From the IMG/VR virus record IMGVR_UViG_2695420398_000010: 28,240 bases of DNA; one strand, 5' to 3'. How positions within the stretch are numbered: the stretch's first letter is position 1; each line of letters opens with the position of its first letter. Below are positions 16,934 through 28,240 of the stretch, one piece after another. Below the pieces are notes generated by a model. That model had not been told where the DNA came from, did no database searches, and saw only the letters and a program-made list of their open reading frames with translations. Origin of the DNA: a virus. Taxonomy: Duplodnaviria; Heunggongvirae; Uroviricota; Caudoviricetes. A program made the translations under genes and the position numbers.

Positions 16934-19900
16934 ATGGGTAAAGGCAGCAGTAAGGGGCATACCCCGCGCGAAGCAAAGGACAACCTGAAGTCCACGCAGT
17001 TGCTGAGTGTGATCGATGCCATCAGCGAAGGGCCGGTTGAAGGTCCGGTGGATGGATTAAAAAGCGTGCTGCTGAACAGTACACCGGTGCTGGACAGTGA
17101 GGGGAATACTAACATCTCCGGTGTCACGGTGGTGTTCCGGGCAGGTGAGCAGGAACAGACACCGCCGGAGGGATTTGAATCATCAGGTTCCGAGACGGTA
17201 CTGGGTACGGAAGTGAAATACGACACGCCGATCACCCGGACCATCACGTCGGCAAACATTGACCGTCTGCGCTTTACCTTCGGTGTGCAGGCACTGGTGG
17301 AAACCACCTCAAAGGGGGACAGGAATCCGTCGGAAGTTCGCCTGCTGGTTCAGATACAACGTAACGGTGGCTGGGTGACGGAAAAAGACATCACCATTAA
17401 GGGCAAAACCACCTCGCAGTATCTGGCCTCGGTAGTGGTGGATAATTTGCCGCCGCGCCCGTTCAACATCCGGATGCGCAGGATGACGCCGGACAGCACC
17501 ACAGACCAGCTGCAGAACAAAACGCTCTGGTCGTCATACACCGAAATCATCGATGTGAAACAGTGCTACCCGAACACGGCACTGGTCGGCGTACAGGTGG
17601 ATTCGGAGCAGTTCGGCAGCCAGCAGGTGAGCCGTAATTATCATCTGCGCGGGCGCATTCTGCAGGTGCCGTCGAACTATAACCCGCAGACGCGGCAATA
17701 CAGCGGTATCTGGGACGGAACGTTTAAGCCAGCATACAGCAACAACATGGCCTGGTGTCTGTGGGATATGCTGACCCATCCGCGCTACGGCATGGGGAAA
17801 CGTCTTGGTGCGGCGGATGTGGACAAATGGGCGCTGTATGTCATCGGCCAGCATTGCGATCAGTCGGTGCCGGACGGTTTTGGCGGCACGGAGCCGCGCA
17901 TCACCTGTAATGCGTACCTGACCACACAGCGTAAGGCGTGGGATGTGCTCAGTGATTTCTGCTCGGCGATGCGCTGTATACCGGTATGGAACGGGCAGAC
18001 GCTGACGTTCGTGCAGGACCGACCGTCGGATAAGGCGTGGACCTATAACCGCAGTAATGTGGTGATGCCGGATGATGGCGCGCCGTTCCGCTACAGCTTC
18101 AGCGCCCTGAAGGACCGCCATAATGCCGTTGAGGTGAACTGGATTGACCCGGATAACGGCTGGGAGACGGCGACAGAGCTTGTGGAGGATACGCAGGCCA
18201 TTGCCCGTTACGGTCGTAACGTCACGAAGATGGATGCCTTTGGCTGTACCAGCCGGGGGCAGGCACACCGCGCCGGGCTGTGGCTGATTAAAACAGAACT
18301 GCTGGAAACGCAGACCGTGGACTTCAGCGTGGGTGCCGAAGGGCTTCGCCATGTACCGGGCGATGTCATTGAAATCTGCGATGATGACTATGCCGGTATC
18401 CGCACCGGCGGGCGCGTGCTGGCGGTAAACAGCCAGACCCGGACGCTGACGCTCGACCGTGAAATCACGCTGCCATCTTCCGGCACCACGCTGATAAGCC
18501 TGGTTGACGGGCAGGGGAGTCCGGTCAGCGTGGAGGTTCAGTCCGTCACCGACGGCGTGAAGGTGAAAGTGAGCCGTGTTCCTGACGGCGTTGCTGAATA
18601 CAGCGTATGGGGGCTGAAGTTGCCGACGCTGCGCCAGCGCCTGTTCCGCTGTGTGAGTATCCGTGAGAACGACGACGGCACGTATGCCATCACTGCCGTG
18701 CAGCATGTACCGGAGAAAGAAGCCATCGTGGATAACGGGGCGCACTTTGACGGTGACCAGAGCGGCACGGTGAATGGTGTCACGCCGCCAGCAGTGCAGC
18801 ATCTGACCGCCGAAGTCACCGCAGACAGCGGGGAATATCAGGTGCTGGCGCGATGGGACACGCCGAAGGTGGTGAAGGGCGTGAGCTTTATGCTTCGCCT
18901 GACCGTGGCAGCGGATGACGGCAGTGAGCGGCTGGTCAGCACGGCCAGGACGACGGAAACCACATACCGCTTCACGCAACTGGCGCTGGGGAACTACAGG
19001 CTGACGGTCCGGGCGGTAAATGCGTGGGGACAGCAGGGCGATCCGGCGTCGGTATCGTTCCGGATCGCCGCACCGGCAGCACCGTCGCGGATTGAGCTGA
19101 CGCCGGGCTATTTTCAGATAACCGCAACGCCGCATCTTGCGGTTTATGATCCGACGGTACAGTTTGAGTTCTGGTTCTCGGAAAAGCGGATTACCGATAT
19201 CAGGCAGGTTGAAACCACAGCCCGCTATCTTGGCACGGGGCTGTACTGGATAGCCGCCAGTATCAATATCAAACCGGGCCATGATTATTATTTTTACGTT
19301 CGCAGTGTGAACACCGTTGGCAAATCGGCATTCGTGGAGGCTGTTGGTCAGCCGAGTGATGACGCATCCGGCTATCTGGATTTTTTCAAAGGCGAGATAG
19401 GGAAAACCCATCTAGCTCAGGAGCTGTGGACGCAGATTGATAACGGTCAGCTTGCGCCTGACCTGGCTGAAATCAGGACGTCCATTACGGATGTCAGCAA
19501 TGAAATCACGCAGACCGTCAATAAGAAACTGGAAGACCAGAGTGCGGCAATTCAGCAGATACAGAAGGTTCAGGTTGATACAAATAATAACCTGAACAGC
19601 ATGTGGGCCGTGAAACTGCAGCAGATGCAGGACGGACGCCTTTATATTGCGGGTATCGGTGCCGGTATTGAGAATACGCCAGCAGGAATGCAGAGTCAGG
19701 TGCTGCTGGCGGCAGACAGGATTGCGATGATTAATCCTGCGAATGGCAACACAAAGCCGATGTTTGTTGGTCAGGGTGATCAGATATTCATGAACGACGT
19801 GTTCCTGAAATATCTGACGGCTCCCACCATTACCAGCGGCGGTAATCCTCCGGTATTTTCCCTGACACCGGACGGGCGGCTGACGGCGAAAAATGCCGAT

Positions 19901-20413
19901 ATCAGCGGTAACGTGAATGCGAACTCCGGGACGCTCAACAACGTCACGATTAACGAGAACTGTCGGGTTCTGGGAAAACTGTCCGCCAACCAGATTGAAG
20001 GCGATCTCGTTAAAACAGTGGGCAAAGCTTTCCCCCGGGACTCCCGTGCACCGGAACGGTGGCCATCAGGGACCATCACCGTCAGGGTTTATGACGATCA
20101 GCCGTTTGACCGGCAGATTGTTATTCCGGCGGTGGCATTCAGCGGCGCTAAACATGAGCGGGAGAATAACGATATTTATTCGTCATGCCGCCTGATAGTA
20201 CGGAAAAACGGTGCTGAAATTTATAACCGTACCGCGCTGGATAATACGCTGATTTACAGTGGTGTTATTGATATGCCTGCCGGTCACGGTCACATGACAC
20301 TGGAGTTTTCGGTGTCAGCATGGCTGGTAAATAACTGGTATCCCACAGCAAGTATCAGCGATTTGCTGGTTGTGGTGATGAAGAAAGCCACTGCAGGCAT
20401 CACGATTAGCTGA
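16934..20413 (+). CDS. J: Tail tip / host specificity protein J (central tail fibre)
   Basis: 1159 aa; N-terminal roughly 880 residues near-identical to lambda gpJ as recalled; the C-terminal roughly 280 residues (receptor-binding region) are clearly more divergent. Confidence 0.95.
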
Positions 20414-20432
20414 ATTTTATAACCCAGATACG

Positions 20433-20457
20433 GGCGCCAGAAATGGCGCCTTTTTTA
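20433..20457 (+). terminator. Rho-independent terminator after J
   Basis: GGCGCC-AGAAAT-GGCGCC followed by TTTTTT. Confidence 0.5.
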
Positions 20458-20480
20458 TTGCAGAAAAGCGAGAGGTAATT

Positions 20481-21080
20481 ATGCGTAAATTATGTGCTGT
20501 TATTTTGTCCGCAGCCATCTGTCTGTCCGTATCCGGTGCGCCTGCATGGGCGTCTGAACATCAGTCCACACTGAGCGCAGGGTATCTTCATGCCCGTACG
20601 AACGCTCCCGGCAGCGATAATCTGAACGGGATTAACGTGAAATACCGTTATGAGTTTACGGACACGCTGGGGCTGATTACGTCCTTCAGTTATGCCAATG
20701 CTGAGGATGAGCAAAAAACGCACTACAGCGATACCCGCTGGCATGAAGATTCCGTGCGTAACCGCTGGTTCAGCGTGATGGCAGGGCCGTCTGTGCGCGT
20801 GAATGAATGGTTCAGCGCGTATGCGATAGCGGGTATGGCTTACAGCCGTGTGTCGACCTTCTCCGGGGATTATCTCCGCGTAACTGACAACAAGGGGAAA
20901 ACGCACGATGTGCTGACCGGAAGTGATGACGGTCGCCACAGCAACATGTCTCTGGCGTGGGGGGCTGGCGTGCAGTTTAACCCGACCGAATCCGTGGCCA
21001 TTGATATTGCTTATGAAGGCTCCGGCAGTGGCGACTGGCGCACTGACGGTTTCATCGTGGGTGTCGGTTATAAATTCTGA
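20481..21080 (+). CDS. lom: Lom outer-membrane protein (Ail/Lom/PagC beta-barrel family)
   Basis: 199 aa with a cleavable signal peptide (AWA|SE); C-terminus YEGSGSGDWRTDGFIVGVGYKF matches lambda Lom as recalled; AAGCGAGAGG RBS. Confidence 0.9.
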   Translation: MRKLCAVILSAAICLSVSGAPAWASEHQSTLSAGYLHARTNAPGSDNLNGINVKYRYEFTDTLGLITSFSYANAEDEQKTHYSDTRWHEDSVRNRWFSVMAGPSVRVNEWFSAYAIAGMAYSRVSTFSGDYLRVTDNKGKTHDVLTGSDDGRHSNMSLAWGAGVQFNPTESVAIDIAYEGSGSGDWRTDGFIVGVGYKF

Positions 21081-21106
21081 TTAGCCAGGTAACACAGTGT
21101 TATGAC

Positions 21107-21134
21107 AGCCCGCCGGTTCAGGCGGGCTTTTTTG
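21107..21134 (+). terminator. Rho-independent terminator after lom
   Basis: AGCCCGCC-GGTTCA-GGCGGGCT followed by TTTTT. Confidence 0.5.
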
Positions 21135-21144
21135 TGGGGGGAAT

Positions 21145-24100
21145 ATGGCAGTACGGATTTCAGGTGTACTGAAAGATGGCGCAGGTAAGCCGATACAAAA
21201 CTGCACCATTCAGCTAAAGGCCAGGCGCAACAGCACCACGGTGGTGGTGAACACAGTGGCCTCAGAAAACCCGGATGAAGCCGGGCGTTACAGCATGGAC
21301 GTTGAGTACGGTCAGTACAGCGTTATTCTGTTGGTGGAAGGATTCCCGCCGTCACATGCCGGGATCATCACCGTGTATGAAGATTCCCAACCCGGTACGC
21401 TGAATGATTTTCTCGGTGCCATGACGGAGGATGATGCCCGTCCTGAGGCACTGCGCCGTTTTGAACTGATGGTGGAAGAGGTGGCGCGTAACGCGTCCGC
21501 AGTGGCACAGAACACGGCAGCCGCGAAGAAGTCAGCCGGCGATGCCGGCACATCTGCCCGTGAGGCGGCAACCCATGCGACTGATGCTGCAGGCTCAGCA
21601 CGCGCAGCCAGCACGTCAGCCGGACAGGCCGCTTCGTCGGCTCAGTCAGCGTCTTCCAGCGCAGGAACGGCATCAACAAAGGCCACTGAGGCATCGAAAA
21701 GTGCTGCTGCTGCAGAGTCCTCAAAAAGCGCGGCAGCTACCAGTGCCAGTGCCGCGAAAACGTCAGAAACGAATGCTGCAGCGTCACAACAATCAGCAGC
21801 CACTTCTGCATCCACCGCGACTACGAAAGCGTCAGAAGCTGCCACCTCAGCCCGGGATGCGGCGGCTTCAAAAGAGGCGGCAAAATCATCAGAAACGAAC
21901 GCATCCTCGAGCGCCAGTAGCGCAGCTTCCTCGGCAACGGCGACAGCAAATTCTGCGAAGGCGGCCAAAACGTCCGAGACGAACGCCAGGTCTTCTGAAA
22001 CGGCAGCGGGACAGAGTGCCTCAGCTGCGGCAGGCTCAAAAACAGCGGCTGCGTCGTCTGCCAGCGCCGCGTCAACAAGTGCCGGGCAGGCCTCAGCCAG
22101 TGCCACCGCCGCCGGAAAATCGGCAGAAAGCGCCGCATCATCCGCTTCAACAGCCACAACGAAGGCTGGCGAAGCCACTGAGCAGGCCAGCGCAGCAGCG
22201 AGGTCAGCTTCCGCAGCGAAGACATCCGAAACGAACGCGAAAGCGTCGGAAACCCGTGCAGAATCCTCAAAAACGGCTGCTGCATCGTCCGCCAGTTCGG
22301 CGGCGTCATCGGCATCATCTGCGTCTGCTTCAAAAGATGAGGCGAGCAGACAGGCATCAGCAGCGAAAGGCAGCGCCAAGACGGCATCCACGAAGGCGAC
22401 AGAGGCAGCTGGCAGTGCGACGGCGGCAGCTCAGAGCAAAAGTACGGCGGAATCCGCGGCAACGCGCGCTGAGACAGCGGCAAAACGGGCAGAGGATATT
22501 GCATCCGCCGTGGCGCTTGAGGATGCGAGCACGACGAAAAAGGGGATAGTACAGCTCAGCAGTGCGACCAACAGCACTTCCGAGTCACTGGCGGCAACGC
22601 CAAAAGCCGTTAAGGCCGCGTATGACCTGGCTAACGGGAAATACACCGCACAGGATGCAACGACAGCACAGAAAGGGATAATCCAGCTAAGCAGCGCGAC
22701 CAACAGCACGTCTGAAACGCTGGCGGCAACGCCAAAGGCAGTAAAATCAGCCTATGACAATGCAGAGAAACGTCTGCAGAAAGACCAGAACGGCGCTGAT
22801 ATACCCGATAAGGGACGCTTCCTGAACAACATTAACGCGGTCAGTAAAACAGACTTTGCTGATAAGCGTGGTATGCGTTATGTGCGGGTTAACGCTCCTG
22901 CAGGTGCAACATCTGGAAAATATTACCCTGTTGTTGTTATGCGTTCTGCTGGCTCAGTAAGCGAACTGGCATCAAGGGTCATTATCACCACGGCAACGCG
23001 AACCGCAGGCGATCCGATGAATAACTGCGAGTTTAACGGATTTGTTATGCCTGGTGGCTGGACTGACAGGGGGCGTTATGCTTATGGAATGTTCTGGCAA
23101 TATCAAAACAATGAACGAGCCATCCACTCAATAATGATGAGTAATAAGGGCGATGATTTGCGCTCTGTGTTCTATGTTGATGGCGCTGCTTTCCCTGTTT
23201 TTGCGTTTATCGAAGATGGCCTGTCAATATCCGCACCTGGTGCTGATCTCGTTGTTAATGATACGACCTATAAGTTTGGGGCAACAAATCCAGCGACTGA
23301 ATGTATCGCGGCGGACGTTATCCTTGATTTTAAGAGTGGGCGTGGTTTTTATGAGTCTCATTCGTTAATCGTTAACGATAACTTGTCGTGCAAAAAACTT
23401 TTTGCCACAGACGAAATTGTAGCGCGTGGTGGTAATCAGATTCGAATGATAGGTGGGGAGTATGGTGCATTATGGCGTAATGATGGCGCTAAAACTTACC
23501 TGCTGCTTACCAATCAAGGTGATGTTTATGGTGGCTGGAATACATTAAGACCGTTTGCTATTGATAACGCAACCGGCGAACTGGTTATTGGAACCAAACT
23601 GTCCGCAAGTCTGAACGGTAATGCATTAACAGCAACAAAGCTGCAAACGCCAAGACTGGTTTCTGGTGTTGAGTTTGATGGTTCCAAAGATATTACTTTA
23701 ACCGCCGCGCATGTGGCTGCTTTTGCCAGAAGGGCAACGGATACATATGCCGATGCGGATGGTGGCGTTCCCTGGAATGCCGAATCAGGCGCTTATAATG
23801 TCACCCGCTCTGGCGACAGCTATATTCTGGTTAACTTCTATACCGGAGTCGGAAGTTGCCGGACATTGCAGATGAAGGCGCATTACAGAAATGGTGGTCT
23901 GTTCTACCGTTCTTCAAGAGACGGTTATGGTTTTGAAGAAGACTGGGCAGAAGTTTATACCTCGAAAAATCTTCCACCAGAAAGCTACCCAGTAGGCGCA
24001 CCAATCCCGTGGCCATCAGATACCGTTCCGTCTGGCTATGCCCTGATGCAGGGGCAGGCTTTTGACAAATCTGCTTACCCGAAACTCGCAGCCGCTTATC

Positions 24101-24690
24101 CGTCAGGCGTGATCCCTGATATGCGTGGCTGGACGATTAAGGGCAAACCTGCCAGTGGTCGTGCCGTATTGTCTCAGGAACAGGACGGCATTAAATCGCA
24201 CACCCACAGCGCCAGCGCATCCAGTACGGATTTGGGGACGAAAACCACATCGTCGTTTGATTACGGCACTAAATCCACGAATAACACCGGGGCGCATACG
24301 CACAGTCTGAGTGGCTCTACGGGGTCTGCCGGTGCTCATACTCATGGTAATGGTATTCGTTGGCCAGGAGGCGGCGGTTCTGCGTTAGCATTTTATGATG
24401 GCGGTGGGTTCACTTATGTCAAGGATTCACAGTATCAAGTAAGCCCGGGGACTTCTTCCAGTAGATCGTATTATCAACGTATTCAGACACAGTCAGCAGG
24501 TGCTCATACCCACTCGCTGTCTGGTACTGCAGCAAGTTCTGGCGCACATGCACATACTGTAGGTATTGGTGCGCATACGCACTCGGTTGCGATTGGCTCA
24601 CATGGACACACCATCACCGTTAACGCTGCGGGTAACGCGGAAAACACCGTCAAAAACATCGCATTTAACTATATTGTGAGGCTTGCATAA
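21145..24690 (+). CDS. stf: Side tail fibre protein Stf (mosaic, 1181 aa)
   Basis: N-terminus near-identical to lambda Stf as recalled; long Ala/Ser/Thr-rich repeat shaft; a central block not shared with lambda Stf; C-terminal His-box repeats (GAHTHS, GAHAHT, GSHGHT) and an end matching lambda Stf ([22 protein letters not shown]). Confidence 0.85.
21500..22500 (+). repeat. In-frame degenerate tandem repeats encoding the Ala/Ser-rich Stf shaft
   Basis: Reiterated motifs such as [19 protein letters not shown] and ATTKA[GS]EA at the protein level; the low-complexity GC-rich DNA creates long phantom ORFs in other frames and on the opposite strand. Confidence 0.55.
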
Positions 24691-25274
24691 TGGCATTCAG
24701 AATGAGTGAACAACCACGGACCATAACAATTTATAATCTGCTGGCCGGAACTAATGAATTTATTGGTGAAGGTGACGCATATATTCCGCCTCATACAGGT
24801 CTGCCAGCAAACAGTACCGATATTGCACCGCCAGATATTCCGGCTGGCTTTGTGGCTGTTTTCAACAGTGATGAGGCATCGTGGCATCTCGTTGAAGACC
24901 ATCGGGGTAAAACGGTCTATGACGTGGCTTCCGGCGACGCGTTATTTATTTCTGAACTCGGCTCATTACCGGAAAATGTCACCTGGTTATCCCCGGAAGG
25001 GGAGTTTCAGAAGTGGAACGGTACAGTCTGGGTGAAGGATACGGAAGCAGAAAAACTGTTCCGGATCCGGGAGGCGGAAGAAACAAAAAACAGCCTGATG
25101 CAGGTAGCCAGTGAGCATATAGCGCCGCTTCAGGATGCTGTAGATCTGGAGATTGCAACGGAAGAAGAGGCGTCGTTGCTGGAAGCCTGGAAGAAGTATC
25201 GGGTGTTGCTGAACCGTGTTGATACATCAACTGCACCTGATATTGAGTGGCCTGCTGTCCCTGTTATGGAGTAA
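24690..25274 (+). CDS. tfa: Tail fibre assembly protein Tfa
   Basis: 194 aa, same length as lambda Tfa and near-identical to it as recalled; start overlaps the stf stop (TAATG). Confidence 0.9.
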
Positions 25275-25288
25275 TCGTTTTGTGATAT

Positions 25289-25323
25289 GCCGCAGAAACG
25301 TTGTATGAAATAACGTTCTGCGG
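25289..25323. terminator. Bidirectional terminator hairpin between convergent tfa and the ea47-like gene
   Basis: CCGCAGAAACGTT-GTATGAAAT-AACGTTCTGCGG, a roughly 12-bp stem, between the two convergent stop codons. Confidence 0.5.
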
Positions 25324-25402
25324 TTAGTTAGTATATTGTAAAGCTGAGTATTGGTTTATTTGGCGATTATTATCTTCAGGAGAATAATGGAAGTTCTATG
25401 AC

Positions 25403-26635
25403 TCAATTGTTCATAGTGTTTACATCACCGCCAATTGCTTTTAAGACTGAACGCATGAAATATGGTTTTTCGTCATGTTTTGAGTCTGCTGTTGATATTT
25501 CTAAAGTCGGTTTTTTTTCTTCGTTTTCTCTAACTATTTTCCATGAAATACATTTTTGATTATTATTTGAATCAATTCCAATTACCTGAAGTCTTTCATC
25601 TATAATTGGCATTGTATGTATTGGTTTATTGGAGTAGATGCTTGCTTTTCTGAGCCATAGCTCTGATATCCAAATGAAGCCATAGGCATTTGTTATTTTG
25701 GCTCTGTCAGCTGCATAACGCCAAAAAATATATTTATCTGCTTGATCTTCAAATGTTGTATTGATTAAATCAATTGGATGGAATTGTTTATCATAAAAAA
25801 TTAATGTTTGAATGTGATAACCGTCCTTTAAAAAAGTCGTTTCTGCAAGCTTGGCTGTATAGTCAACTAACTCTTCTGTCGAAGTGATATTTTTAGGCTT
25901 ATCTACCAGTTTTAGACGCTCTTTAATATCTTCAGGAATTATTTTATTGTCATATTGTATCATGCTAAATGACAATTTGCTTATGGAGTAATCTTTTAAT
26001 TTTAAATAAGTTATTCTCCTGGCTTCATCAAATAAAGAGTCGAATGATGTTGGCGAAATCACATCGTCACCCATTGGATTGTTTATTTGTATGCCAAGAG
26101 AGTTACAGCAGTTATACATTCTGCCATAGATTATAGCTAAGGCATGTAATAATTCGTAATCTTTTAGCGTATTAGCGACCCATCGTCTTTCTGATTTAAT
26201 AATAGATGATTCAGTTAAATATGAAGGTAATTTCTTTTGTGCAAGTCTGACTAACTTTTTTATACCAATGTTTAACATACTTTCATTTGTAATAAACTCA
26301 ATGTCATTTTCTTCAATGTAAGATGAAATAAGAGTAGCCTTTGCCTCGCTATACATTTCTAAATCGCCTTGTTTTTCTATCGTATTGCGAGAATTTTTAG
26401 CCCAAGCCATTAATGGATCATTTTTCCATTTTTCAATAACATTATTGTTATACCAAATGTCATATCCTATAATCTGGTTTTTGTTTTTTTGAATAATAAA
26501 TGTTACTGTTCTTGCGGTTTGGAGGAATTGATTCAAATTCAAGCGGAATAATTCAGGGTCAAAATATGTATCAATGCAGCATTTGAGCAAGTGCGATAAA
26601 TCTTTAAGTCTTCTTTCCCATGGTTTTTTAGTCAT
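25403..26635 (-). CDS. ea47: Ea47-like protein of unknown function (AT-rich accessory gene)
   Basis: Long uninterrupted minus-strand ORF in visibly AT-rich DNA; starting at the third in-frame Met (MTKKPWERRL, GGAGAG RBS upstream) gives 410 aa / 1233 nt, the size of lambda ea47, and the 128-nt gap from tfa matches lambda; track ORF extends to 26662 (419 aa). No Walker A, HNH or HEPN motif seen by eye. Confidence 0.6.
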   Translation of the reverse strand: MTKKPWERRLKDLSHLLKCCIDTYFDPELFRLNLNQFLQTARTVTFIIQKNKNQIIGYDIWYNNNVIEKWKNDPLMAWAKNSRNTIEKQGDLEMYSEAKATLISSYIEENDIEFITNESMLNIGIKKLVRLAQKKLPSYLTESSIIKSERRWVANTLKDYELLHALAIIYGRMYNCCNSLGIQINNPMGDDVISPTSFDSLFDEARRITYLKLKDYSISKLSFSMIQYDNKIIPEDIKERLKLVDKPKNITSTEELVDYTAKLAETTFLKDGYHIQTLIFYDKQFHPIDLINTTFEDQADKYIFWRYAADRAKITNAYGFIWISELWLRKASIYSNKPIHTMPIIDERLQVIGIDSNNNQKCISWKIVRENEEKKPTLEISTADSKHDEKPYFMRSVLKAIGGDVNTMNN

Positions 26636-26811
26636 AAAACTCTCCATTTTGATAGGTTGCATGCTAGATGCTGATATATTTTAGAGGTGATAAAATTAAC
26701 TGCTTAACTGTCAATGTAATACAAGTTGTTTGATCTTTGCAATGATTCTTATCAGAAACCATATAGTAAATTAGTTACACAGGAAATTTTTAATATTATT
26801 ATTATCATTCA

Positions 26812-27126
26812 TTATGTATTAAAATTAGAGTTGTGGCTTGGCTCTGCTAACACGTTGCTCATAGGAGATATGGTAGAGCCGCAGACACGTCGTATGCAGG
26901 AACGTGCTGCGGCTGGCTGGTGAACTTTCGATAGTGCGAGTATTGAATGATTTCCAACTGTTATCGATTTTGCGTATTTTTTGCATGAGAGGATTTTTAC
27001 CTCCTCCCACCGATCCTCCATGGCTTTACGCCAGTGTCTCTGGTCTGCTATGTGCCAGGAGCAGCCATTGCTAAGTCCATCCTGTATTGTGCAGGTCAGC
27101 TCGTTTTTAAAGAGTCCGGCCATCAT
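26812..27126 (-). CDS. Hypothetical 104-aa ORF upstream of and co-oriented with the ea47-like gene (doubtful)
   Basis: Open frame of near-normal GC content with a weak RBS and tandem ATG start; no recognisable family; could be a decayed remnant. Confidence 0.15.
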   Translation of the reverse strand: MMAGLFKNELTCTIQDGLSNGCSWHIADQRHWRKAMEDRWEEVKILSCKKYAKSITVGNHSILALSKVHQPAAARSCIRRVCGSTISPMSNVLAEPSHNSNFNT

Positions 27127-27416
27127 CTTACTGGTACAGACACCATATACTTTGTGACGGTCAGGCTACATATGCACAACTCAACTTATTCATCTATTTT
27201 TTGCTTTAGCATGTCAGTGTTGCTTTCTCGTCGGCGGGTGAGCGGTGACCTGACCTGTCGATAAAGGAACGTAGCACGTTTTATGCAACACCCGCATGCG
27301 GCAGAAAATTATTGCCGAACGTTTACCCCTGTCAACAAGCTTTACTTTCTGAGGCGCGCCAGCCCGCGAGGAAAACAATCTGAACATCAAACAATTAATG
27401 ACACAAGAAATACGAT

Positions 27417-27442
27417 TAAAGATTTTTTTGTGCATGCCGATA
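27417..27442 (+). promoter_or_regulatory. Sigma-28 (FliA)-type promoter
   Basis: TAAAG-N14-GCCGATAG fits the flagellar sigma-28 consensus (TAAAGTTT-N11-GCCGATAA) in sequence and spacing; lies about 25 nt upstream of an AAGGAG RBS and ATG 27467. Confidence 0.55.
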
Positions 27443-27466
27443 GTGCTTTTTTAAAAGGAGAAATCT

Positions 27467-27799
27467 ATGTCTGTCACAATTCAGGGAAATACCTCAACCG
27501 TTATTTCAAACAACTCCGCCCCGGAAGGAACATCAGAAATAGCCAAAATCACAAGACAAATTCAGGTGCTGACTGAAAAGCTTGGGAAAATCTCATCGGA
27601 AGAGGGGATGACGACACAGCAGAAAAAAGAAATGGCTGCATTGGTACAGAAGCAAATTGAAAGCCTCAGGGCTCAACTGGAGCAGTTGTTAAGGCAGCAG
27701 GCAGAGAAAAAGAATGAAGACGCGACAGTTCAGCCTGATAAAAAAGAAGAGAAAAAAGACGATACAAATACCGCTGGCACCATTGATATTTACGTCTAA
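27467..27799 (+). CDS. flxA: FlxA-like small coiled-coil protein
   Basis: 110 aa with a Ser/Thr-rich N-terminus, central heptad-like coiled-coil and Lys/Glu-rich C-terminus; size and architecture match prophage FlxA-family proteins and it carries a sigma-28-type promoter; strong RBS. Confidence 0.55.
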   Translation: MSVTIQGNTSTVISNNSAPEGTSEIAKITRQIQVLTEKLGKISSEEGMTTQQKKEMAALVQKQIESLRAQLEQLLRQQAEKKNEDATVQPDKKEEKKDDTNTAGTIDIYV

Positions 27800-27814
27800 G
27801 TGACAGCCGTATTG

Positions 27815-27836
27815 TGGCCCTCATCGGGCCACTTTT
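27815..27836 (+). terminator. Terminator-like hairpin after the flxA-like gene
   Basis: TGGCCC-TCATC-GGGCCA followed by a short T-rich tract (CTTTTC). Confidence 0.4.
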
Positions 27837-28240
27837 CGCCATCAGCCTTTTCTTTAAAGACATATTATCTTTGTATCATTTTTGATAGTTAACATTACAA
27901 GATATAAGTAATGGACGCACTCCCAATTAGTCTATTTAAATCGCCACGAGTTTAACTGACAACCCATGATCAATTATGAATTGCAACTATTTCTGTAGTC
28001 ACTTTTGTGGGGACAGTCCACAAAACTGCCAACTTCCGCTTCTTGCTCATAACAGACATAAACTTCAGTTATGGCATAAAGGTATGCATGCTGGGTGGGG
28101 AAAGTATGAAGGAAAAGAAGACTGCTGCGCCGTTTGTCGTCACGTTTATCTTCATTGGCTATGCAAGTCGTAATACAAGGTGGGACAAAACTGAGACACA
28201 TAAGGCCTCGCAATGGCTTGCAAGGCTTTACATGTTTTGA

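Follow-up and report, generated by a model that had tools for sequence, protein, structure and literature searches.

A segment without a supported gene as the probable seam between a lambda-type prophage arm and an flxA end-module

The segment of 0.8 kb at positions 26636–27416 of a 28,240-nucleotide stretch of DNA from a virus of the class Caudoviricetes (IMG/VR record IMGVR_UViG_2695420398_000010; the whole stretch is called the window here, and coordinates are those of the window unless another genome is named) lies between the lambda gene ea47 on its left and flxA on its right. We hold with good confidence that it is a seam without a supported gene, where the arm of a lambda-type prophage meets the flxA end-module of another prophage family, the two having been joined by homologous crossover within an element of about 95 bp that both possess. 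A first-pass annotation had proposed a recombination junction with an exchanged cargo module, and this proposal is supported and can be made exact, as the switch between the two parents is found between 26912 and 26939. Beyond this earlier reading, the joint is a homologous crossover in a widely shared element, the AT-rich part of the segment is plain lambda DNA, and the part of near-normal G+C content is the nearly invariant ydfV′-flxA leader of Qin/e14-type prophages.

How precisely can the joint be placed? In a three-way alignment of the window, lambda and L007, the closest e14-like locus, all 40-bp bins over 26600–26919 are identical to lambda at 40 of 40 positions and all bins over 26960–27399 are identical to L007 at 40 of 40. 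The informative sites tell the same, being lambda-like in 20 of 20 cases in 26860–26912 and L007-like in 34 of 34 in 26939–27088. Because these sites change from lambda to L007 across a tract that is identical in both parents, the switch is assigned to the 26 bp of 26913–26938, with 26912 as last lambda-specific and 26939 as first e14-like-specific base. On the left, the ea47-like gene of the first-pass annotation turns out to be lambda ea47 itself, 25211–26912 (ea47 and its upstream region) containing a single difference from lambda; on the right, 26939–28240 has 99.8–100% identity with the terminal "cargo – ydfV′ – flxA" part seen in e14-like prophages (99.8% with L007 over 27800–28240). The parents share 26879–27078, about 200 bp, at about 85–92% identity, and the joint contains no sequence foreign to both apart from one base. 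This private base, a T at 26928 where both parental types have C, lies in the crossover tract itself and speaks against the simplest version of the account; it may mean that the right-hand parent differed slightly from L007 or that a mutation came later. To be counted on the same side is that the mapping covers one crossover, the right-hand one of two.

Alignment with lambda and with related prophages shows a left part that is collinear with lambda and rearranged DNA beyond it. The comparison of window 19000–28240 with lambda 21000–29000 yields three BLAST blocks: homology with lambda extends as far as window 27081 (lambda 24365) and is found again from 28031 (lambda 27319), and no block comes from lambda 24366–27318. 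The absence of ea31 and ea59, recognized already in the first-pass annotation, is thereby borne out, and the lambda b-region order ea47-ea31-ea59 is not found in the window. That the segment occupies the position where lambda has ea31 and ea59 is likewise correct as far as position goes, but its first 277–443 bp are collinear with the lambda ea47–ea31 spacer (lambda 23919–24362) and so are not replaced DNA; among phage records 26636–27078, bases 1–443 of the segment, match this lambda stretch with 93.9% identity. The two patches that flank the foreign DNA are 26879–27078, which matches lambda 24162–24362, and 28031–28172, which is 83% identical to lambda 27319–27464 and corresponds to DNA just left of the lambda sib/attP region. 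Read against the lambda map, ea31–ea59 (24.3–27.3 kb) is replaced by about 1.1 kb of ydfV′-flxA between two conserved patches. The sequence 28169–28229 resembles the one that directly follows the element in HK633-type phages (locus L012 and several IMG/VR contigs); flxA thus seems to have entered between two stretches that lie next to each other in such phages.

Among 5426 complete Escherichia coli genomes, bases 244–781 of the segment (26879–27416) match with 98.5–98.7% identity the ends of prophages that carry Mu/e14-type tails and a Pin invertase. From pinE onward the e14-like prophages carry a single cargo gene on the minus strand, an open reading frame (ORF) labelled hypothetical or "YdfV", and flxA, and then follow chromosomal genes near paoD/ykg; other prophages have the same ydfV′-flxA end beside the adjoining chromosomal genes (LysR genes, paoD, rclC) but their tails are of the Mu/e14 type. 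The joint is rare, as the whole segment is present in a single one of the 5426 genomes, NZ_CP180609, with 99.9% identity. The prophage in question (3,839–3,883 kb) resides at tRNA-Thr next to proA and combines e14/CPS-53-type early genes (ymfK, ymfT, ymfL) and DLP12-type lysis genes with lambda-type late genes; it is a hybrid whose right-hand crossover is the same as that of the window. A "4-fold beta flower" gene follows flxA in NZ_CP180609 and is absent from the window.

Most probably a lambda-type genome met an e14-like, thrW-integrating prophage and homologous exchange took place in 26913–26938, within the roughly 200 bp that the two share; a phage Rad52-like enzyme or RecA would have carried it out. 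In the product, structural genes of lambda together with ea47 form the left side, and on the right the attR-proximal ydfV′-flxA module stands in place of ea31–ea59. Two blocks of about 100% identity that meet within a patch of about 90% are the trace left by homologous recombination in lambdoid mosaics (De Paepe et al., 2014; PMC3945230), and the same paper quotes about 30 bp as the minimum substrate of Red-beta. The joint is a further instance of this ordinary and well-understood lambdoid mosaicism. Its value lies in the resolution: it is a base-resolved example of lambdoid prophages swapping attR-proximal cargo, in which a tract of at most 26 bp, within a short non-coding patch common to both sides, sufficed to link the structural genes of lambda with the flxA module that an unrelated prophage family carries.

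A different origin of the joint, illegitimate or site-specific insertion of a cassette at a hairpin of the element, with repeats that bracket the cassette acting as dedicated recombination sites, deserves attention on account of the surroundings of ea47. The right copy of this hairpin (26879–26912, minus strand) is part of the element, and a left copy, CCGCAG-N22-CTGCGG at 25290–25323, lies just after tfa. The two belong to one repeat family (D1): 25289–25332 and 26878–26921 are direct repeats of 44 nt with 77% identity, and the pattern CCGCAG-N22-CTGCGG occurs twice in the window at an expectation of 0.04. Between them sits the ea47 cassette (25333–26877, GC 31%). Lambda has the same short hairpin copy, and e14-like prophages have it after pinE; in one of these, beside a Pin invertase gene, the order short hairpin, minus-strand cargo, element recurs with PD-T4-3 as the cargo. 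Among the e14-like prophages the equivalent slot is taken by PD-T4-3 (2.2e-140) or by a type IV restriction enzyme, GmrSD (E = 0), and a K-12 remnant has ykgJ at the same position next to the element (slot coordinates: window 25289–26921; L007 4987–6122; L003 2843–5116; L014 8612–9314); beside GmrSD, in a second e14-like prophage, and beside K-12 ykgJ no short hairpin copy was detected. The 5′ edge of the element (GUAAAAUC), moreover, falls on the same nucleotide in at least eight unrelated flank classes, as an insertion mechanism might produce. The position of the switch argues otherwise, as it is found 1–26 nt beyond the hairpin, in a parent-identical tract within about 200 bp of 85–92% homology, which is what homologous exchange predicts. 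The repeats are equally well explained if each cargo unit brought its own terminator of a common type. No recombinase acting on the hairpin was found, nor do we know of one, and Pin acts on other sites. Cassette insertion is for these reasons a very improbable origin of the joint, and homologous crossover is preferred. The slot itself looks like a recurrent site for cargo or defence genes, which would make Ea47 a candidate defence protein. In relatives the slot is occupied by known defence genes, and it would offer a testable hypothesis for a protein that has been unexplained for 50 years.

The element in which the crossover occurred spans 26879–26973 and consists, on the minus strand, of 5′-GCAAAAUCGAUAAC, a stem-loop 1 (GUUGG...CCAGC closing the invariant loop AAAUCAUUCAAUACUCGCACUAUCGAAAGUUCA) and a 3′ hairpin of terminator type. 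It is present in 196 phage records, among them lambda, HK97, HK106, HK633, phi80, mEp460, mEpX2, the cdtI phage, many Stx1 and Stx2 phages and VT1-Sakai, and 3908 of the 5426 E. coli genomes have a match to the segment that is mostly owed to the element; K-12 has a copy in the ykgJ-ecpE spacer, at 304,224–304,313. A second subfamily, in which the loop starts with CAAUC and not AAAUC, is represented by at least 120 IMG/VR contigs, by two Salmonella phages (FSL SP-016 and ZC-S1_prp) and by the Citrobacter phage Chris1. The element always follows the last late or tail-fibre gene of the rightward series and precedes sib/attP or the end of the prophage. Both edges are sharp and abutted by many unrelated flanks. 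Of 193 distinct contexts, 99 have an ORF of the DinI family (PF06183, 1.2e-19) upstream of the element and on its strand, with 66 among the 90 contexts of subfamily 2 and 33 among the 103 of subfamily 1; it ends 10–65 nt from the 5′ edge of the element as this edge was set by the counting script, and the phi80 record predicts a LexA box 5′ of its dinI-family gene. The window and lambda have no dinI upstream and thus carry orphan copies.

The element seems not to have been described before. Rfam 15 holds no family that reaches its gathering threshold on the element, the only match, seen with permissive thresholds, being to CssrB with 17.4 bits against a threshold of 76, and gave nothing on ten loci of subfamily 2; the element sequence was found in no paper of the searchable literature, which likewise yielded nothing on the ea47–ea31 spacer. 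The element is a discrete, structured, very widespread and apparently undescribed unit, absent from Rfam although present in lambda itself, in HK97 and phi80 and in Stx, Salmonella and Citrobacter phages.

Several existing labels touch the element. The HK633 record calls it "attP" (L012 2505–2585), owing to a match with the K-12 ykgJ-yagV spacer, and PGAP places an 87-bp "capsid protein" pseudogene on it (L007 6014–6100); both are probably misannotations. An attachment site was rejected as identity of the element, since it occurs together with different integrases and is 3.4 kb from attP in lambda, and so was the 3′ end of chromosomal dinI, as the K-12 dinI terminator is short and unrelated. 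Some assemblies, under names such as Chromatium, Pseudomonas, Streptomyces, Enterococcus and Paenibacillus, contain exact copies (loci including L016, L018, L020, L022–L024, L026 and L029), located on short or low-coverage lambda-like contigs, some of about 48.4 kb. Hosts outside the Enterobacteriaceae were rejected because the carrier contigs have these properties, and the copies are taken as contamination by lambda DNA. In "Campylobacter phage CJLB-4" (MW057783, 48,361 bp) the alignment with the segment is the same as that of lambda in span, identity and score.

What has been conserved in the element? The terminator-type hairpin has a fold energy of −28.6 kcal/mol (z = −2.6). With the structure set by hand and the pairs then counted, a first alignment showed 6 of 11 stem pairs changed on both sides, in 25 cells against 6.3 ± 2.0 in shuffles, none of 500 being as high. 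An alignment of 65 sequences from both subfamilies has 87.9% of cells paired, as compared with 26–61% when partners are slid, and 75 double-change cells against 25.5 ± 3.9 in shuffles, again reached by none of 500; in the outer six-pair helix of the hairpin 92.7% of cells are paired and four of the six pairs show double changes. A stable, G+C-rich hairpin under selection, as expected of an intrinsic terminator, is thus found. The upstream stem, GGCUGG/CCAGCC or in subfamily 2 GACUGGC/GCCAGUC, contains one strongly compensated pair (GC n = 37, AU n = 17). RNAalifold applied to a plain MAFFT alignment did not recover the hairpin because of indels. Columns of loops are conserved to about 94% and those of stems to 83%, and the loop AAUCAUUCAAUACUCGCACUAUCG is invariant or nearly so in both subfamilies.

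Some observations caution against too firm a structural and strand assignment. Stem-loop 1 is weaker than the terminator hairpin, with 83% of cells paired and double changes in two of seven pairs, and the copy in the window has one mismatch and one wobble. The copies were gathered by exact-match patterns, which by itself accounts for part of the conservation seen at 22 loop positions; phage copies collected by BLAST, which are free of this bias and cover the same span, agree on the loop. The strand assignment rests on gene context and on runs of U, and the wobble test is mild, with 70 G-U against 45 A-C cells in favour of the minus strand. As to the U-runs, 34 of 91 variants have at least four U within 6 nt 3′ of the hairpin when read on the minus strand, and none of the 91 has them when read on the plus strand; from this together with the upstream genes we infer that the element is read on the minus strand in relatives. 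The hairpin of the window, like that of lambda, has CUCUACC after it on the minus strand and CUGGCUGG on the plus strand, so that the U-run of an intrinsic terminator is missing on both.

The opposite orientation would make the element the end of the late or tail-fibre transcript, or the 3′ end of a rightward small RNA (sRNA) resembling CssrB. Its constant location 3′ of the last rightward late gene would suit such a role, and full-length CssrB (230 bits in locus L021) ends exactly in a paralogous hairpin that has the plus orientation of the window, from which the 17.4-bit match of the window hairpin follows. In addition, the 45 A-C cells would be G-U on that strand, notably in stem-loop 1 of lambda. 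Against this stand the lack of a plus-strand U-run in any of the 91 copies, the dinI-type gene that lies with its stop codon directly upstream on the minus strand in half of the contexts, and the excess of G-U cells, 70 to 45, for the minus strand, on which the terminator stem of subfamily 2 also has G-U pairs. Action on the plus strand is on balance unlikely and the minus-strand assignment is kept.

Could the element have been conserved as DNA, with the RNA structure being incidental? A protein-binding site near attP or a hot spot of recombination would agree with the vicinity of sib/attP in HK97-type phages and with the label attP in HK633, with loops that are more conserved than stems, as for sequence-specific recognition, and with the fact that the present crossover fell inside the element. 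The carriers, however, differ in integrases and attachment sites (lambda, phi80, HK633 with an IntS-type enzyme, Stx and thrW phages), and the lambda copy is far, 3.4 kb, from attP. The compensatory changes in the stems argue for pairing under selection, though pairing in single-stranded or cruciform DNA would look alike. A role as DNA site is accordingly regarded as quite improbable, and an RNA acting from the minus strand is preferred.

On this minus-strand reading the element would elsewhere be, in about half of the contexts, the 3′ untranslated tail plus terminator hairpin of a leftward prophage gene of the dinI/msgA type. The orphan copies of lambda and the window would probably serve at most as a leaky 3′-end or stability hairpin for leftward transcripts toward ea47: as dinI is missing and the U-run is replaced by CUCUACC, such transcripts would probably be poorly stopped and could continue toward ea47. 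In lambda, leftward transcripts are read-through from pL that gives the "Ea" early proteins; in the window they might also start at the sigma-70-like sequence TTGACA-N16-AATAAT at 27335–27308. A bolder proposal unites the observations on the element and the slot, and we put it forward as a speculation that we think unlikely: that the element is an autonomous two-hairpin regulatory RNA module with invariant loops, which originated as the 3′ end of SOS-inducible dinI/msgA genes in prophages, has persisted without dinI in lambda, HK97 and here, could act as a trans-acting sRNA in the manner of DinR (described below) or as a protein-binding RNA, and jointly with its hairpin repeats also delimits a recurrent slot where the tail-fibre region ends, in which defence cargo (PD-T4-3, GmrSD) gathers, with Ea47 as candidate defence protein. 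Should it be true that a functional RNA is tied to the SOS-induced dinI of prophages, the best-studied phage would gain a new regulator.

The first-pass annotation had also left room for a small protein, a regulatory RNA or the ea47 promoter in the segment. Of these fallback roles, the promoter fits the upstream region of lambda ea47, in which a promoter is annotated in HK629, and the RNA has a candidate in the structured element, but a small protein finds no support. The weak overlapping ORFs that it had listed, 104 amino acids (aa) on the minus and 76 aa on the plus strand, do exist, and their lengths are within chance: in 1000 dinucleotide shuffles of 26636–27466, ORFs of 104 aa or more turn up in 5.8% and ORFs of 76 aa or more in 35%. 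None of the six ORFs in or overlapping 26636–27416 matches Pfam or NCBIfam. The 104-aa ORF (26812–27126, minus strand) spans the crossover, which makes it a chimera, and runs through the hairpin that precedes a U-run in relatives. A tblastn search against phages recovers only the conserved element, with 58–70% amino acid identity against about 88% at the nucleotide level, and between lambda and the window substitutions in 26939–27039 number 5, 8 and 5 on codon positions 1, 2 and 3, without excess at the third, followed by indels of 1, 1 and 3 nt. The plus-strand ORF is the vestigial, YdfV-like one that RefSeq models with 83 aa (27013–27264; 76 aa when counted from the GTG at 27034) and annotates as hypothetical or YdfV. 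The RefSeq model begins with ATC, and neither a canonical start nor a conserved N-terminus is present: in K-12 YdfV (b1565) the first 29 aa are encoded by unrelated DNA next to relB that is absent here and the C-terminal approximately 70 aa are identical, the N-terminus differing between K-12 and the other prophages because the breakpoint lies inside the ORF. In a tblastn search against phages this ORF has no diverged homologue and matches a Qin-like phage alone. A plus-strand mini-ORF from the conserved ATG at 26947 (MISNCYRFCVFFA here) was considered and rejected, its length and sequence varying between flank classes.

A real small protein, be it the 104-aa minus-strand ORF or the YdfV-like plus-strand ORF (27013/27034–27264), would nevertheless have some arguments in its favour. 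Both ORFs exist, RefSeq places the 83-aa model inside the segment, which counts against calling it free of genes, a short ORF on the minus strand figures at the corresponding place in some lambda records, a length of 104 aa is in the upper 6% of shuffles, and the ydfV region is conserved to at least 99% in 1212 genomes. This last conservation extends to the flanking non-coding DNA: the leader 27085–27466 is found in 1212 of the 5426 genomes and has at least 99% identity in 1213 of 1215 records, so that its near-invariance reflects recent spread. As the leader has no diverged copies, its evolution is neutral on the question of coding, a reservation about the absence of a gene as well. The lack of any Pfam or NCBIfam family, the chimeric nature of the longer ORF and the ATC start of the shorter one make a genuine small protein very unlikely. 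No ORF in the segment is supported as a gene, and the ORFs, the RefSeq "YdfV-like" call included, are unfit to be treated as such.

The right-hand part of the segment, 26974–27416, is the left flank of the flxA cassette, identical at 100% to e14-like prophages of the thrW/paoD locus, whereas homology to K-12 Qin begins only at about 27040. It is the leader of this cassette, with the vestigial ydfV ORF and the leftward sigma-70-like promoter inside and the FliA promoter just beyond. The sigma-28-driven gene that the first-pass annotation had placed on the right is indeed flxA, which encodes 110 aa (27467–27799, plus strand; PF14282, 1.2e-14; WP_001349760.1 in relatives). Its FliA (sigma-28) promoter TAAAGATTTTTTTGTGCATGCCGATAGT at 27417–27444 (plus strand) agrees letter for letter with the motif listed for flxA from chromatin immunoprecipitation sequencing of FliA (PMC4183435): the parts TAAAGATT-N11-GCCGATAG at 27417–27443 are equal to the motif, and a sequence of the TAAAGTTT-N11-GCCGATAA type that is identical to an experimentally bound site hence stands 5′ of flxA. 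A hairpin, GTGGCCC-TCATC-GGGCCAC, followed by TTTTCG (27814–27838, plus strand) begins 15 nt past the flxA stop codon and is a likely flxA terminator, although it was absent from the output of the consensus scan. The leftward sigma-70-like promoter, TTGACA-N16-AATAAT at 27308–27335 on the minus strand, came from the consensus scan with 11 of 12 matches and is aimed at the element and ea47, away from flxA; the region holds six consensus-like sigma-70 sites against 4.0 ± 1.8 expected, which is not above chance. In K-12 this predicted promoter would fire toward relBE.

The gene order at the right end of the window is stf (21145–24690), tfa (24690–25274), the AT-rich minus-strand gene (25403–26635), the segment and the 110-aa gene (27467–27799). 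The AT-rich minus-strand gene is ea47, the lambda allele, with 410 aa by RefSeq coordinates and annotated WP_000162952.1 in locus L001; no family was found for it in Pfam, NCBIfam or PADLOC. Its upstream region (26636–26878, minus strand, GC 30%) is identical to lambda 23919–24161, with 40 of 40 positions in each 40-bp bin, and contributes the 5′ region of lambda ea47 to the seam together with a probable promoter. The candidate, TTGACA-N16-TATCAC at 26714–26684 on the minus strand, is consensus-like and lies at the position whose homologue is annotated as promoter in the HK629 record. The change in composition seen at first pass, from an AT-rich stretch at about 26663–26810 to near-normal GC, is confirmed by values of 25.7% for 26663–26810 and 46.0% for 26811–27416, the whole window having 52.1%.

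Further to the left, stf (21145–24690, plus strand) encodes 1181 aa with a very long repetitive region rich in Ala, Ser and Thr, far longer than the stf pieces of lambda, and good alignment of stf/tfa with lambda is restricted to the last approximately 180 bp of stf, plus tfa. The Rfam family IS009 (RF02111) matches 25033–25231 (plus strand) with 221 bits, within the intact tfa, and it also matches tfa fragments elsewhere, including the K-12 yagU-ykgJ spacer (L014 8612–8811); the IS009 "gene" would therefore be the 3′ part of the coding sequence of phage tfa. The sRNA EcsR2 has been placed between yagU and ykgJ (Raghavan et al., 2015; PMC4350180). This spacer neighbours the one that holds the K-12 copy of the element, and EcsR2 is distinct from the element.

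How do the joint, the slot and the element compare with known systems? The mosaic joints described by De Paepe et al. (2014; PMC3945230), which lambdoid phages form with resident (defective) prophages by relaxed homologous recombination, are the same in that two segments of about 100% identity and different lineages meet in a shorter shared stretch of lower identity, and in that a phage of the lambda type exchanges DNA with a prophage of E. coli; the present exchange is situated in the neighbourhood of tfa/ea47, which served in the assays of that paper. They differ in that the patch of homology here is a non-coding element of about 95 bp plus about 100 bp to its right, not a gene fragment, and that the event is read from sequence alone. 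The ydfV-flxA module of K-12 Qin is shared with the window, 27040–27800 being 99.7–100% identical to K-12 1645.98–1646.74 kb with the FliA promoter and flxA included, but in K-12 it adjoins relB and has a different 5′ third of ydfV, whereas here and in e14-like prophages it adjoins the conserved element. Morons, as reported by Juhala and colleagues in 2000, are autonomous cargo units in the late regions of lambdoid phages that bring a promoter and a terminator of their own. With its AT-rich upstream region and downstream hairpin ea47 resembles such a unit, and the slot holds other single genes in relatives; the difference is that repeats of a single hairpin family enclose the units, at least in lambda and the window and in the prophage with PD-T4-3, and that this recurrent slot is seemingly undescribed.

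For the element itself, the retroregulatory hairpin sib/tI of lambda is comparable as a hairpin in the leftward transcript, 3′ of int/att on the side of the b region. It is a separate sequence, however: in lambda sib lies about 3.3 kb to the right of the element, while HK97 has both side by side, the annotated sib site abutting the element. Rfam CssrB (RF02799) has a 3′ hairpin of the same hairpin family, but only the hairpin matches (17.4 bits against 76), the orientation is opposite, and in the one locus examined CssrB lies about 1 kb from the element. The full-length CssrB mentioned above (RF02799, 230 bits) is found at L021 4611–4790 on the minus strand, in an E. coli prophage, and CssrB, called a chromosome-encoded sRNA of Shigella, would therefore be prophage-borne at least in that genome. 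As closest described analogue of the element we would name DinR, an Hfq-dependent sRNA cut from the dinI mRNA 3′ end in Klebsiella pneumoniae and reported to be specific for Klebsiella (PMC10907235). DinR comes from the chromosomal dinI, and the 3′ end of chromosomal dinI in E. coli is short and unrelated to the element; the copy in the window is attached to no dinI gene, and no sign of processing, of Hfq binding or of a target was found for the element. A conserved unpaired loop, AAUCAUUCAAUACUCGCACUAUCG, that could correspond to a seed is present, in part through ascertainment, and a dinI-family ORF precedes the element in those 99 of 193 contexts, with none in the window or lambda. What the element in its dinI-linked contexts would have in common with DinR is an RNA at the 3′ end of a LexA-controlled gene of the dinI family, with a conserved single-stranded stretch upstream of the intrinsic terminator in which it ends (PMC10907235).

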